This document shows, piece after piece, positions 48,001 to 60,000 of a stretch of DNA of 64,000 nucleotides. Within the stretch, counting starts at the first letter, position 1. Each line of letters starts with the position of its first letter. Position numbers: made by a program. Location of the stretch: contig CAVXAT010000004.1 of assembly GCA_963759805.1 (NCBI GenBank), forward strand, positions 66,984-130,983, given 5' to 3'. This DNA is from an uncultured bacterium. Lineage in GTDB: Bacteria; Babelota; Babeliae; Babelales; RVW-14.

Positions 48001-51000
48001 TTCTAGTGCCAACTGGTGAGGTTCTTAGTTTCTTTGCTGATGATAAGACCAAAAAAGAGAAGATTTTCCCTGGGTATCTTTTGATCCAGATGGAAATGGT
48101 TGGCGAGTCATTTAGGCTGGTTTCTTCGAATCCACGAGTTACTCGCTTTTTAGGTGGAGAAAGTCCGGTATCACTTACCGACAAGGAAGTGGATAGAATT
48201 TTTGCTCAGATGTCCGGCAAACTCACCGTATCTAGCGAAAAGAAGCCATTTGCCGTGGGAGATGAGGTTCACATAAGTAGTGGTCCATTTTCTGGTTTTG
48301 TGGGGAGAATTGATAAGACTGATGAGGAACGTGAAAAGCTTACGGTAATGGTAAGTATTTTTGGAAGACTTACTCCAGTTGAATTGGGTTTTGATCAGGT
48401 TAAAAAATAAATTAAACTAAACATAAACAAACTATAAAGGTTAGTTCAAATGGCAAAAGAAATTAAAGCGAATGTAAAGCTTCAAATTCCTGCTGGAGCT
48501 GCAACTCCAGCCCCACCAGTTGGTTCATCATTGGGACAGCATGGTGTTAATATTATGGATTTTTGTAAAAAATTTAATGCTGCAACAATGAAACGCAAGG
48601 GTGAGACTGTTCCGGTTGTGATTACAATTTACAAAGATAAAACGTTTGATTTTATTCTGAAAACTCCGCCGGTGTCCGAGTTGCTCAAAAAAAGATCGAA
48701 TATTACAAAAGGGGCATCCAATCCAGGAAAAGATACCTCCGGAACAATCAAGTGGTCTTCAATAGAAGAAATTGCCAAAATTAAATTACCGGATTTGAAC
48801 GCTGTTGATATAGAAGCTGCAAAAAAAATCGTTGCAGGCAGCGCTCGAAGCATGGGCCTTAAAGTTATTGATTAGTAGTTGTTAAATGTTAGAGTCGAAT
48901 AGCGGTTGAACTGCTTTAGATTTGTGCTTTTGAAATCATCACTTAATTACTTAATAGAAGTGGATTTGAATTATGAGTAATACAGGTAAAAAACATTTGA
49001 AAGCCAGAGAAAAGTTAGCAGGAGCTAATGTCAACTCTTGGAAGTCGGCACTCGATTTTGTCGTCAAAAATGCTCACGCAAAGTTTGACGAGACGGTTGA
49101 TGTTGATTTGGTTCTTGGAATCGATGCATCCAAGGGAGAGCAGACAGTCAGAGGCTCTGTCCTTTTGCCAAATGGTACTGGTAAAAAGGTTAGAGTTTTA
49201 GCTTTTGCAAAGGGAGAGCACGAGGATGCTGCTCGTAAGTCTGGCGCTGATTATATTGGTACAGAAGATCTGGTGCAAAAAATTGAATCAGGTTGGATGG
49301 ATTTTGATGTAGCAGTGGCAACACCCGATTTGATGGGTTTAGTCGGAAGGGTTGCAAAAATTCTTGGTCCTCGTGGATTGCTGCCAAACAATAAGATTGG
49401 AACGGTCACTTTTAATCTGACTGGTATTATAACAGATCTTAAAAAGGGTAGACTTTCCTATAGAAACGATAAGTGTGGAATTGTTCATGCCCCGTTTGGG
49501 AAGGTTTCTTTTGGGGTTGACAAATTGCATGATAATCTGGTTGCTTTAATCAGATCTATCCAGGGTTCTAAGCCCGCAACATCAAAGGGAAAATTCCTCA
49601 AAAAACTCACGATCTCTTCAACGATGGGTGTTGGCGTAAGTATCAATCCAGACGAAGTTTCATAACAGAGTTTATAGAGGGATCAAACAATGAATCGACA
49701 AGAAAAAGAAAAGGTTATATCTTCGACCAAGGAACTTGTATCCAAATCGCAGGCTGTGTTTGTCGTTAACTATAAAGGCCTGAGTGTCGCTAAGATGCAA
49801 AATTTAAGAAATTGTATTCGTCAAAATGGTGGCCAGCTCAAGGTTATAAAATCATCATTGATGGATATAGCATCTAAGGATATAGATGGAGCTGAAGAGT
49901 TTAAGTCTAGTTTCAAAGATCAAATTGGCTTTGTTTTTGCAAAAGGTGATGTTTCTGCTGTAGCAAAGCAATTGATAGGCTTTTCAAAAGAAAATGACGC
50001 TTTAAAGGTTGTTACCGGTATTTTTGAGTCAAAAGTGTTGAATCCTTCTCAGATAGATATGATTGCATCATTGCCATCTAGAGAGGTTTTAATTGCTCAG
50101 GTACTGGGTACAATGCAGGCTCCAATTGCGTCATTTGTTAGAGTGCTTAACCAGGTTGTTGCTAGTTTGCCTCAAGTTCTCAAGCAAATTGAAGAAAAGA
50201 AGGCTAGCGGCAATTAAGATTGTTTGATATGATAGTTGTATTAGTTATTAGGTTGGGGGTTGAATATCTGGTTTAAATTTGGGATTCACCTGAACATAAT
50301 AATTGTGATTTAAGTGTTTAATCTTGTAAGGGAGTTTTTCACATGTCATCTAAGATTGTAGAAGAAATAAGCAAAATGTCGGTTATGGAGTTGGCAGAAC
50401 TTGTTAAAACATTAGAAACAAAGTTTGGAGTATCTGCAGCAGCTCCTGTGGCAGCAGCATCCCCTGCAGCAGCCGCAGCGCCCGTAGCAGCAGCCGCTCA
50501 GGAAGAAAAGAGCGAGTTCAAAGTTACATTGAAAGATGCTGGCGCAGATAAAATTAAAGTTATTAAGGCTTTAAGATCTGTTACAACACTTGCCTTGGGC
50601 GCAGCAAAAGAAGCAGTTGAAAGCGCTCCATTTGTTGTGTCAGAGGCTGCTCCAAAAGAAGATGCTCAAAAAATTAAAAAAGCATTGGAAGAGGCTGGAG
50701 CCAAGGTAGAATTGGCCTAATAATTGGGTTTAAATTCTTGGTTATTTTATTGGGTGAAATTTTTAAGTTAGATTCCGTCTGAAACCTAGTGTTTTGAGAC
50801 GGAGTCTAATTTCGTTCTTTATGGATTATAATGAGTTGGGCTTTAGCTAGCTTGTTAAGCGTTGGTGTATTGTTCGGTTGATTTGAACTTTTTACGAGTG
50901 GGAGCAAATTGATGTCTCAATACGGAAGAGGTAAAGGCCTTTTACGAAAATCTTTTAGTAAAATTGAAGAGGTTGTTTCGTTACCAAACCTCATAGAGGT

Positions 51001-57000: not shown

Positions 57001-60000
57001 CTTGTCGAACGAATGTATAAGACATGTGGCGCAGAGGCTACGGTAATTGCTCTTGATAAAATAAAACAACTTGGGTTTAGCAATGCAACGCTTGGTGGTA
57101 TTTCTCTATCTATGGAAAATCTTGTTATTCCGGATTCTAAATATACATCCGTTTCAAATGGATTAAAGGAAGTTAGCGACGCTGAGCAGCTTTATCTTGA
57201 AGGTGCAATTACAAATGGTGAGCGCTACAATAAAGTAATTCAGATCTGGGCAAAAGCAACAGAGTCTGTTACAAATGATATGATTTCCGTGTTGGAAGAC
57301 CAGGATAAGGCATCATCTGCAAATGTCGATAAAAAGAATATTCCATTTAATAATGTATTTATGATGCTTGATTCTGGAGCTCGTGGTTCCAGACAGCAAA
57401 TACGTCAGTTGGCCGCCATGAGAGGTTTAATGGCGACTCCATCGGGCGAAATTATGGAAACTCCGGTTCTTGCAAATTTTAAAGAAGGCTTGAACGTTTT
57501 TGAATACTTTATTTCAACTCATGGCGCTCGTAAGGGATTAGCTGATACTGCATTAAAAACCGCTGACTCCGGTTATTTGACTCGTAGATTGGTGGATGTT
57601 TCACAAGATGTTGTTATATCTCAGCATGATTGTCAGACTCTTGGATATTTAAATTTGAGTGAATTGAGAGAATCCGGCGAAGTGTTGGCCCCTCTTACAA
57701 AACGAGTTTTTGGTAGAGTTGCAGCAGAAGATGTTAAAGATCCTGTTTCAGGTAAATTGATTGCCAAACAGGGTGATTTGATTGATGACGCTGTTATTGA
57801 AATACTCAAAGATTCGGCTGTTACAGATGTTGCTGCACGATCTGTTTTGACTTGTCAGGCAAAACGTGGTGTTTGCGCAAATTGCTATGGAATGGATCTT
57901 TCAACGCAAAAACTTGTCGACATTGGAACTGCAGTTGGAATTATTGCGGCACAATCAATTGGCGAACCCGGTACGCAGCTCACAATGAGAACGTTTCACA
58001 TTGGAGGAACTGCCAGTGGACTTGTTGAAGAGAATTTTTATAAATCTAAGTTTGCAGGCAAGGTGGTGTTTAAAGGAATTTACGCAGTCAAAAATAGAAA
58101 AGGTGTTTGGACTGTTGTGAATCGCAGATCCAAAATTGCTATTGTCTCAGATGATGGGCGTGAGCTTGAAGAGTATAGAATCGAATATGGAACATGGTTA
58201 TTGGTAAACGACGGTGATATTGTCGAAAAAGGTAAAAAACTTGCCGAATGGGATCCGTTCAAAGTTATTATGACTGAAAGAGCGGGACATGTTCAATTTA
58301 TTGATCTGATTGAAAATGTTACATATCAAGAGCAGTTTGATGAAACCGTTGGACGTTCCAATAAAATGATTCTTGAAAAGAGAGACGAAAGACGTCAACC
58401 ATGCGTTGCTATAATGGATAGCGAAAATGGCGAGATAGCAAGATATTATCTTCCTACCGGAGCACTTTTGACAATGGAAGATAATGTAGAGGTTTATCCG
58501 GGGGATATTCTGGCAAAACTTCCTCGTGAAGAGAAGAAAACCAAAGATATTACCGGTGGTTTGCCTCGTGTAACAGAGTTGTTTGAAGCTCGAGTCCCAC
58601 ATGATGCGGCAATTTTGAGTGAGATTGATGGTGTTGTAAAATTCGGTGGAGTTCATCGTGGCCAACGCAAAATTACGGTAACAACCGATGAAGGTGAGAC
58701 ATTTGAATATACAGTTCCTAGAAATAGGCATCTAAATGTTGAGGATGGTGAGCACGTTAAGGCCGGCGATGCATTAACATTTGGTGTTCCCAACGCTCAT
58801 GATGTGTTAAAGATTCTGGGGCCTGATGCTGTTCAAAGTTATCTTGTTAAAGAGGTCCAAGAAATTTATACACTGCAGGGTGTGGATATTCACGATAAAC
58901 ACATTGAAACCATTGTACGTCAAATGTTGAGAAAAGTGCGTATCATAGAATCAGGAGATACAAACTTTGTTATTGGTGATCGCGTTGACAAGTTGCAACT
59001 GCAGGCGATAAATAAGGCTTTAGCTAAAGAGGGTAAAAAAGTGGCAACGGCAAAGCCTATTTTGATGGGTATTACAAAGGCTTCGCTTGGAACAGAAAGC
59101 TTTATTTCAGCAGCGTCATTCCAAGAGACAACACGTGTTTTGACAGAGGCTGCTCTTGCAGGACAAGTTGATTATTTATATGGCTTGAAAGAAAACATTA
59201 TAATTGGTAAGATTATACCTGCAGGAACTGGAATAGCGTCATTCAAGAAAAAGCATATTGGTGAAGATGTTTCAGACTTTGAAAAACAGGCTCGTGATGA
59301 AGAGCAATTAGAAGCCGGATTAGATAAAATATCTTTAAAATAAGAATAATTGAGTCAATCAGGCGCGTAGCTCAGTTGGTAGAGCATTGCTTTGACGTAG
59401 CAAGGGTCTACGGTTCGAATCCGTACGCGCCTATTAATTTTAGTAAAGTAAAAAAGTTTTGTTTAGGTTAATTTAAGTCAATTAACGAGGTCAAACATAA
59501 ATGTTAAATAAAGAAGTAAAAGATAAAGTTATAAAACAGTACGCAATACATTCAAATGATACTGGTTCAAGCCATGTTCAGATTGCTTTGATAACAGAAA
59601 GAATTAATCAGATTGCAGTTCATCTTGAAAAATTCTCAAAAGATTATCATTCACAAAGAGGACTTTCAATGCTTGTTGGACAGCGTCGCGCATTGTTGAA
59701 CTATCTTAAGAGAAAAGATTTTTCAGCTTACCAGAGTCTGACAAAAATGATTAAAGGGTAACGAATTTGGTTTATTATAAGGCAAGCTTGGTTTACTGGT
59801 TAGAGAGAGGCTTTTATGCATAAGATTTTTACTTTACCCGATGTAGGGTTGGTAGCAGAGGTTGGCAAGCTTGCTCGTCAAGCAGATGGTTCGGTTTGGA
59901 TTAGGGTTGGTGATAACGTTGTTTTGGCAACAGCGGTTGCTTCAAAAGAGGTTCAAGGGTTTAAGGGTTTTTTCCCTTTAACTGTAGAATATCGTGAGCG

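Follow-up and report, generated by a model that had tools for sequence, protein, structure and literature searches.

Bacterial groups without Gre factors, and others without omega, are already in print. GreA/B is missing throughout the cyanobacteria, whose RNA polymerase cleaves RNA quickly by itself and has a split beta' with a very large SI3 (PMC7026648). Aquificaceae, Dictyoglomaceae and Fusobacteriaceae, which are free-living or extracellular, have also been named as groups without any secondary-channel factor, Gre included (PMC4598747), and omega was not found in Patescibacteriota and Chloroflexota (PMC13192885 Table S1). Chlamydiae, which like Babelota are obligate intracellular bacteria with small genomes and a DksA, differ in keeping GreA and Mfd, and also a diverged omega adjoining gmk (PMC9973325).

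Babelota, a phylum of bacteria living inside protists, appear to be without Gre, Mfd, omega and the ppGpp alarm system. They are not the first group reported to lack Gre or omega, and an earlier note on this DNA, which presented them as a further phylum beside Cyanobacteria without Gre, was right that the loss is phylum-wide but made the absence of Gre on its own look rarer than it is (PMC4598747). The unusual part is the joint absence of Gre, Mfd and omega, which was seen in none of 49 outgroup genomes (Gre in 42, Mfd in 45, omega in 39). A 2015 supplementary table already holds zeros for GreA, Mfd and RpoZ in two genomes.

The beta and beta' genes lie in the window, by which we mean the whole 64-kb stretch of a Babelota contig that was analysed, with the following features.

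50909-59343, plus strand: rpoB and rpoC.
50909..55226, plus strand: rpoB (beta subunit), in two ORFs (50909-54136 and 54090-55226).
51158..51334, plus strand: Cys-rich insertion in the beta1 lobe, directly ahead of the IKE motif; present in Babelota genome G042, not in E. coli.
55219..59343, plus strand: rpoC (beta' subunit), in three ORFs, the main one at 55765-59343.
56461..56484, plus strand: beta' segment equivalent to E. coli 412-419, beside ppGpp site 1; the position of H419 carries R, as it does in 26 of 30 Babelota.
56599..56619, plus strand: catalytic NADFDGD motif of beta', intact; N458, D460, D462 and D464 are present in 30 of 30 Babelota.
56644..56682, plus strand: omega-facing helix (E. 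coli 473-485), which is remodelled; E475 is K here and 482 is polar.
57928..57930, plus strand: position of E. coli E913; T here, and E in 0 of 30 Babelota versus 59 of 71 outgroups.
57979..58600, plus strand: trigger loop carrying an SI3 insertion about as long as that of E. coli (173 aa versus 187).
59233..59340, plus strand: C-terminal tail of beta', conserved across Babelota and predicted to form two helices; it may cover the omega site in cis.

Both reading frames are interrupted. In rpoB the frame shifts once, near 54112-54117, which probably reflects an assembly indel, and rpoC, compared with an intact relative (97% identity across the first 95 residues), has two compensating changes, near 55503 and 55670-55700. 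Since same-family relatives have open rpoC frames of 1384-1397 aa and frame changes affect 8 of 258 shared genes of this assembly, the breaks in both genes are most likely assembly indels. None of the sequencing runs contains half of the 64-kb stretch. The catalytic aspartates, bridge helix and trigger loop of the beta/beta' core are all intact.

Genes for Gre, Mfd, omega and long RelA/SpoT were undetectable across the phylum, and these losses are real. The Gre N-terminal domain (PF03449) was found in 0 of 261 Babelota genomes and 0 of the 189 high-quality ones, and PF01272 matched in one of 192, on a foreign contig. We rejected this lone match as a Babelota Gre: the genes of its contig have poor matches or none in Babelota, while many genes on three other contigs of the same bin match at 50-73%. 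Our own Gre profile, run unfiltered, reached only 12.3 bits in Babelota genome G000 and 10.3 bits in G042; the same profile scores two divergent foreign Gre-like proteins at 53 and 38 bits. A TFIIS finger, horizontally acquired ones included, was found in none of five genomes. The claim that GreA/B is missing throughout Babelota is thus borne out, as is that for Mfd (TRCF profile), absent from all 192 genomes, a larger sample than the earlier 31. The earlier Gre count of 9 of 14 controls needs correcting: Gre was found in every non-cyanobacterial bacterium among them (9 of 9), and the remaining controls are four archaea and Synechococcus. Unlike Babelota, Synechococcus has Mfd, omega and RelA/SpoT, and it gave no DksA-finger or Rho match.

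Omega (PF01192) matched in nine of 192 Babelota genomes at E<=0.05, one of them above the cut-off, and none was judged genuine. The sole strong match, which looked like omega fused to a Babelota protein, is a giant-virus-like polymerase ORF on a foreign contig, and the ORFs of two of the eight weak matches, when inspected, were not omega-like. TIGR00690 found no omega in five genomes at E<=1. Our own omega profile, which recovers 30 of 30 left-out omegas at 33 bits or more, reached at best 9.0 bits (G000) and 11.3 bits (G042) when run unfiltered, and it did not match beta' (probability 0.13). A small gene downstream of gmk was found in none of 30 Babelota loci; the 70-aa ORF that follows gmk in this genome is a shadow ORF of an EamA gene and was discarded. 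Of the 166 small proteins of G042, 89 were scanned with Pfam; neither these nor the syntenic orphans shared by G042 and G000 gave an omega signal. A 92-aa orphan considered as a candidate has a DUF4911-like lead instead (score 0.82). Since gmk synteny, the unfiltered profile search and the remodelled beta' surface (below) agree, omega loss is independently supported, and the earlier doubt, that omega might be too diverged to detect, is much reduced.

No long RelA/SpoT (RSH) protein was found in 192 Babelota genomes. The RelA_SpoT domain gave weak matches in three of them, in frames of 241-390 aa, so the reported zero holds for long RSH and not for domain matches. The DksA finger was present in 77 of 81 genomes and missing from four. 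What had been described as a small DksA/TraR-like zinc finger is, rather than a finger alone, a full coiled-coil DksA of ~115-125 aa with a DxxDxA tip and a C4 zinc finger, and a fold search with its model returned solved DksA structures as best matches (7khi_M, 4ijj). Coiled coil and tip resemble those of E. coli DksA, Pseudomonas DksA2 and TraR, and the finger that of E. coli DksA, from which the Babelota protein differs in missing the N-terminal 30 residues and in its ppGpp pocket. Among the pocket residues listed in PMC7676912, R91 is kept in 0 of 30, L95 is E in 29 of 30, K139 is Q in 30 of 30 and K98 is also replaced; the acidic tip is kept (D71 and D74 in 30 of 30). Neither the site-2 residues nor the long RelA/SpoT that go with a ppGpp-dependent, E. 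coli-type DksA were found. Because R91, L95, K98 and K139 are replaced, Babelota DksA should work without ppGpp, like TraR. Judged by sequence, then, DksA has kept the tip that enters the secondary channel and lost the residues that hold ppGpp. CarD, Rho, UvrB and UvrD are retained with it, as is one sigma70.

CarD is kept, as the earlier note had it, in 71 of 71 genomes, as stand-alone RID-domain frames of 171-247 aa, not within Mfd. The search also gave four extra weak matches, below the cut-off, in frames of 549-779 aa. A single sigma70-family match in each of five genomes, with sigma54 in none of the five, agrees with the proposed single sigma factor. Rho, UvrB and UvrD were each found in five of five genomes, which says little, as these are common bacterial genes.

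The omega-facing surface of beta' is remodelled, as in the omega-less Chloroflexota and Patescibacteria. We take beta' 473-485 and 903-913 to be the omega contact regions. E475 occurs in 0 of 30 Babelota versus 68 of 79 comparison sequences (33 of 39 among omega-bearing genomes), and a hydrophobic residue stands at position 482 in 32 of the 39 omega-bearing genomes, in 5 of 30 Babelota and in none of the 6 Chloroflexota/Patescibacteria. Across a wider set of 120 sequences, 475 is K/R in 98 and 419 is R in 102. The canonical set (E475, R481, hydrophobic 482, H419, E913) is not kept. We note that Babelota beta' evolves fast (9-14% departure at conserved positions versus 2-12% in outgroups) and that the omega-site changes are a few among 42 lost conserved positions. 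The Babelota changes overlap to a modest extent with those seen in omega-less phyla (7 of 40, p 0.036; a control gave 4 of 40, p 0.33). The polar 482 shared with 6 of 6 Patescibacteriota/Chloroflexota reads as an analogy of separate lineages, not kinship; Gre, unlike in Babelota, is present in 5 of these 6 genomes, the Babelota tail motif in none, and the beta' tails of two Patescibacteria are short or low-complexity. In PMC7700224 we found no list of the residues that contact omega.

The C-terminal tail of Babelota beta' is nearly invariant at three positions (G10 in 120 of 120; E17 and E24 each in 117 of 120), and weak covariation links its conserved helix to the vacated omega surface, a result that is new here. 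AlphaFold2 modelled a 1192-aa beta' piece poorly (pTM 0.33), with two low-confidence tail helices. A complex prediction of the tail with two beta' fragments (score 0.00, controls not folded) speaks neither for nor against contact. Tails are conserved inside omega-bearing phyla too. A comparison of tail identity (55% within Babelota versus 15% between outgroups) was set aside, as the outgroup pairs span phyla. Tentatively, and a little short of an even chance in our estimate, the second tail helix may fold back to lie on the omega-binding helix, whose charge is reversed (tail D12 facing K/R475; the tail helix facing R419), as an in-cis omega substitute. This would give a four-chain core without Gre, Mfd or ppGpp, with ppGpp-free DksA as the only secondary-channel factor and acidic residues possibly replacing the alarmone.

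The account that we favour, which we hold to be almost as likely true as false, is that the Babelota ancestor lost greA/B, mfd, rpoZ and long RelA/SpoT and that the polymerase has since adapted to their lack. The enzyme would be an alpha2-beta-beta' core, the tail probably packing onto the vacated omega surface, which is the weaker part of the account. DksA, which improves fidelity and shares with GreA the task of averting conflicts (PMC4598747), would as the last secondary-channel factor reduce misincorporation and replication conflicts without ppGpp; Aquificaceae, Dictyoglomaceae and Fusobacteriaceae, in contrast, are said to have no such factor. In place of rescue through Mfd or Gre cleavage, stalled complexes would be cleared by Rho, UvrD and the replisome; nucleotide excision repair, too, would proceed without Mfd. 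These functional steps are carried over by analogy from E. coli, where omega loss makes the polymerase more Rho-sensitive and release easier (PMC13192885). Such easy release is weakened as a step, because a tail replacing omega could leave the enzyme no less stable.

A rival in which the active centre itself cleaves backtracked RNA quickly and without help, like that of cyanobacteria but through other residues near the bridge helix, trigger loop and secondary channel, with DksA serving initiation only, seems to us rather improbable. Babelota do carry phylum-wide substitutions at otherwise conserved sites near these elements (I755M in 24 of 30, I759V in 30, L783Q in 21, V1141I in 24 and V1240I in 29), and further Gre-less groups may have the cyanobacterial trait (PMC7026648). 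However, the four cleavage-raising substitutions of that study leave no Babelota signature: F773 is kept in 30 of 30, G1136 in 27 and N792 in 22, and position 940 (T19, I8, V2, L1) resembles the outgroups (V28, T24). V1141I is among the substitutions without effect (PMC7026648), and we found no paper on L783Q. Beta' is unsplit, SI3 is not enlarged, and DksA and Rho are kept, all in contrast to cyanobacteria.

Somewhat less probable still is plain genome reduction without compensation, in which a protected life inside host cells allowed four independent losses, with more errors and stalls as the price, and the changes on the beta' surface would reflect relaxed selection after omega loss. Chlamydiae are not known to have RelA/SpoT, nor is Carsonella known to have Gre. 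The four losses may indeed be independent of each other, because the phylum also drops other near-universal genes (gmk is missing from 23 of 61 genomes; PMC4378268 adds RNase III, deformylase and others), and Mfd occurs in just 34 of 47 small genomes and, as in Babelota, in neither of two Patescibacteria tested. GreA, in contrast, is present in all 47 genomes of comparably small size (PMC4378268) and in both Patescibacteria, and it is essential in Mycoplasma genitalium (PMC4598747). The changes at 475 and 419, in the tail (G10, E17, E24) and in DksA (E95, Q139) are also fixed, not degenerate.

We regard as very unlikely a hidden factor on the remodelled surface and conserved tail, either omega diverged past recognition or an unrelated phylum-specific protein: chlamydial omega did escape annotation until synteny and folding revealed it (PMC9973325), tail conservation could signal a partner, as in omega-bearing phyla, and one conserved helical orphan of 145-157 aa occurs in five of five genomes and G042, but the omega profile fails to match this protein (probability 0.08), which has no useful match in Atlas, PDB, Pfam or NCBIfam, and the omega and TFIIS searches above were negative.

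As a whole phylum without Gre, Mfd, omega and ppGpp, Babelota offer a natural minimal polymerase in which long-standing questions can be tested directly: the purpose of omega, whether DksA can replace Gre in fidelity, and how stalled complexes get cleared without Mfd. The system is accessible, as cultured members exist and the subunits could be expressed in E. coli.

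The combined loss of Gre, Mfd and omega is real and phylum-wide in Babelota. All genome searches covered six frames with stops read through. The Gre N-terminal domain was found in none of 261 Babelota genomes and in none of the 189 high-quality ones, and the C-terminal domain was found in one of 192. The exception, bin G120, encodes two divergent Gre-like proteins on a 21-kb contig:

L303:7095-7568 and 13024-13500 (G120:C4), two divergent Gre-like proteins

Most ORFs on this contig were unmatched in two Babelota proteomes (best 40%), whereas many ORFs on three other contigs of the bin matched at 50–73%; the contig is therefore foreign, and the absence of Gre claimed in the earlier note holds. 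The Pfam N-terminal model misses both foreign proteins, so by itself it can overlook Gre. Our own profile of 19 outgroup Gre proteins, run unfiltered, reached at best 12.3 bits in the genome under study and 10.3 bits in G042, a second Babelota genome, compared with 53 and 38 bits for the foreign pair. Mfd was also absent as claimed, with the TRCF domain in 0/192 Babelota genomes and 10/10 bacterial controls. CarD and Mfd share the RID domain, and only frames of 171–235 aa matched it above cut-off. For RelA/SpoT, no long RSH occurred in 192 genomes, but the reported zero gave way to weak matches in three, in frames of 241–390 aa:

L011:1219-2391, L012:236-1342 and L013:1243-1968, short RelA/SpoT-domain-like proteins

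These have signal-peptide-like starts, and two have an apparent C-terminal NUDIX domain (labels assigned by eye); they could be secreted nucleotide-modifying enzymes.

Omega was sought in several ways. PF01192 at E≤0.05 matched in 9/192 Babelota genomes, with one match above cut-off, and in 14/14 controls. We rejected the sole match above cut-off, which is the C-terminus of a giant-virus-like polymerase ORF on a contig that is probably a contaminant:

L002:1417-3141 (G070:C113), giant-virus-like RNA polymerase largest subunit with C-terminal Rpb6/omega domain, a single 1378-aa frame in a Babelota bin

This fusion brings to mind a large subunit that incorporates its own omega. TIGR00690 gave no match in five genomes at E≤1. 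A profile of 30 omegas was searched against all six-frame ORFs of the genome under study and of the main contig of G042 (790 kb). Its best scores there were 9.0 and 11.3 bits, respectively, while every left-out omega scored at least 33 bits, a lenient control because these omegas were all Pfam-detectable. Since chlamydial omega was missed by annotation and then located beside gmk (passages of PMC9973325), we inspected 30 Babelota gmk loci, and none had a small same-strand gene directly 3' of gmk; most had an rRNA operon or a convergent EamA gene downstream. Guanylate kinase (gmk) was itself absent from 23/61 genomes and, where present, often abuts an rRNA operon on the opposite strand. G042 has 166 small genes, 122 of them non-secreted or shared with the genome under study, and Pfam scanning of 89 gave no match to omega. 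Syntenic orphans of the two genomes resemble ZapB, ATP synthase parts, pilin and FtsL. A conserved helical orphan also shows no likeness to omega:

L330:1501-1935 (G000:C1:343620-344045, genome under study) and L056:9197-9667, helical orphan of 145–157 aa with a WKP motif at its end

This orphan was present in 5/5 genomes tested and in G042, and neither Pfam, NCBIfam, PDB nor Atlas gave a useful match to it.

The polymerase genes lie in the window:

window 50909-59343, rpoB then rpoC

As assembled, rpoB changes frame once, near 54112-54117. Compared with an intact close relative, rpoC changes frame twice, near 55503 and 55670-55700, and the two changes compensate each other. Assembly indels are the most likely cause, since relatives have open frames of ~1330–1400 aa and 8/258 genes common to this genome and G042 also carry frame changes. 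The beta1 lobe has an insertion (window 51158-51334) that is rich in Cys, probably binds zinc and lies close to the CarD-binding motif. In the beta' clamp (window 55219-56400; relatives L086-L114), near-invariant positions are changed phylum-wide (P41I, T93I, T262S, I273L, N277I, K332R, G358D; E. coli numbering throughout), substitutions that may alter sigma or NusG binding.

Conservation of at least 80% across 79 outgroup sequences defined 494 beta' positions, and 30 Babelota have lost 42 of them. These include E475 (68/79 outgroups, 0/30 Babelota, with K or R in 25), E913 (59/71 versus 0/30) and H419 (66/77 versus 2/30). Segments 473-485 and 903-913 presumably contact omega, as in E. coli structures. 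Position 482 was hydrophobic in 32/39 omega-bearing genomes and in 4/4 others whose omega merely went undetected, but in 0/4 Chloroflexota, 0/2 Patescibacteria and 5/30 Babelota. In their non-hydrophobic 482, most Babelota thus resemble two phyla listed without omega in Table S1 of PMC13192885, and part of PMC7676912 places 412-420 and 612-622 at the omega interface. Against this reading, Babelota beta' is fast-evolving overall; omega-less phyla shared a modest number of the lost positions (7/40, p 0.036, kinship ignored), compared with 4/40 for divergent omega-bearing controls (p 0.33, kinship ignored). The changed positions are nevertheless evidence for omega loss independent of gene searches. 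With profiles and gmk synteny negative, the earlier concern that omega is too diverged to detect recedes, and Babelota very probably lost it.

Following the PAGTG motif, Babelota beta' carries a conserved C-terminal tail (numbered from its own start), with F4 in 117, G10 in 120, E17 in 117, A20 in 116 and E24 in 117 of 120 sequences. A strict tail pattern fitted 100 of the top 120 database hits; named homologues of the beta' C-terminus were mostly labelled Babeliales or Dependentiae, with one Desulfuromonadales, in keeping with the earlier note's assignment to Babelota. The tail is not homologous to omega. We calculated background-corrected mutual information over 120 beta' sequences (28–106 effective), with shared descent uncorrected and the omega-facing segments fixed beforehand. 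Tail columns had their best partner in those segments in 6/18 cases (0.84 expected) at 80% weighting, 4/21 (1.0) at 75% and only 2/18 (0.73) at 90%, all uncorrected for kinship. In a split made afterwards, tail 1-8 leaned to 612-619/903-913 and tail 9-24 to 412-419/473-485 (top-three partners 8/45, 4/36, 3/36 and 2/36, with 0.4–0.7 expected), and D12 paired best with 475. The strongest couplings overall look phylogenetic, and we treat covariation with the vacated omega surface as a lead, not a structure.

Other factors were retained. As claimed earlier, CarD is kept (71/71 genomes) and sigma is single: 5/5 genomes have one sigma70-family gene, and 0/5 have sigma54. Rho, UvrB and UvrD each occurred in 5/5 genomes, and TFIIS in 0/5. 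In the genome under study these include:

C1:271740-272297, CarD gene
C8, DksA gene, adjoining a deaminase gene
C11:47698-50118, sole sigma70, 806 aa, its long N-terminus rich in lysine
C8:88621-90339, Rho, 572 aa, with a long N-terminal extension

Long sigma70 and Rho frames were also seen in four other genomes. DksA was single-copy in 77/81 genomes, so the retention of a DksA/TraR-like protein stands, but not its description as a small zinc finger: the predicted structure (pLDDT 84), closest in fold to E. coli DksA and DksA2, indicates a full coiled-coil factor. Over 30 loci its tip aspartates were invariant and A76 was kept in 23, while R91 occurred in none, L95 was E in 29, K139 was Q in 30 and K98 was never among the common residues. 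In E. coli, R91, L95, K98 and K139 hold ppGpp at site 2 (PMC7676912, in part). Babelota beta' keeps N680 (30/30) and K681 (26/30). Two site-1 residues, R417 and K615, have been lost, which says little because they vary in outgroups too.

This combination appears unusual. Outgroups came from a GTDB pattern scan, with 50 of 80 titled loci picked for breadth and one unpublished genome dropped. In the remaining 49 (completeness not given), Gre was above cut-off in 42, Mfd in 45 and omega found in 39; five lacked two of the three and none lacked all. An Omnitrophota bin (L128, G267; completeness not given) lacked Gre and Mfd and had omega, and a bin titled Mycoplasma sp. had omega. The PMC4378268 supplementary table, as the earlier note cautioned, already gives zeros for GreA, Mfd and RpoZ, with DksA at one, in two genomes (comparison genomes: GreA 47/47, Mfd 34/47, RpoZ 16/47). 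Its main text nowhere mentions Mfd, omega or RpoZ, GreA is not among the matches shown, and the section on losses names other genes. The words transcription and RNA polymerase are absent from PMC4776705, and passages found in PMC6561590 name Nus factors and uvr genes and leave these absences unremarked. A literature search, with most subscription journals outside it, returned nothing on Dependentiae with GreA, transcription or RNA polymerase. Babelota are Gre-less, but not simply a further phylum beside Cyanobacteria, as sections of PMC4598747 also report Gre loss in Aquificaceae, Dictyoglomaceae and Fusobacteriaceae. Omega loss is in print for Mycoplasma/Ureaplasma and, in PMC13192885 (Table S1), for Patescibacteriota and Chloroflexota; Figure 1A of that paper, covering all classes, may already show Babelota without omega. 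Each single loss is thus known elsewhere, and the combination is apparently undiscussed.

How Babelota manage could be explained in several ways. Fast intrinsic RNA cleavage by residues other than the cyanobacterial ones is somewhat unlikely; L783Q, I755M and I759V are candidates. Four residues raise cleavage in a cyanobacterial study (773, 792, 940 and 1136; PMC7026648, in part), but in Babelota F773 (30/30), G1136 (27/30) and N792 (22/30) are mostly unchanged, 940 is outgroup-like and SI3 is 173 aa, so the cyanobacterial solution is not evident from these sequences. Tolerated, uncompensated genome reduction is unlikely, and beta' and DksA carry signs of refitting. Tails are also conserved within some omega-bearing phyla, which leaves room for a hidden partner; we rate a hidden factor doing the missing job as improbable.

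The simplest joint reading, which we put forward tentatively, is that stalled or erroneous transcription may be prevented and removed, not rescued; its functional steps are all ones that we infer. Portions of PMC4598747 report that DksA reduces misincorporation and that its role in preventing replication conflicts overlaps that of GreA, and portions of PMC13192885 that E. coli complexes without omega are released more easily and sensitised to Rho. In Babelota, DksA would limit misincorporation and replication conflicts in the absence of Gre, and omega-less complexes would be released readily, with Rho, instead of being rescued.
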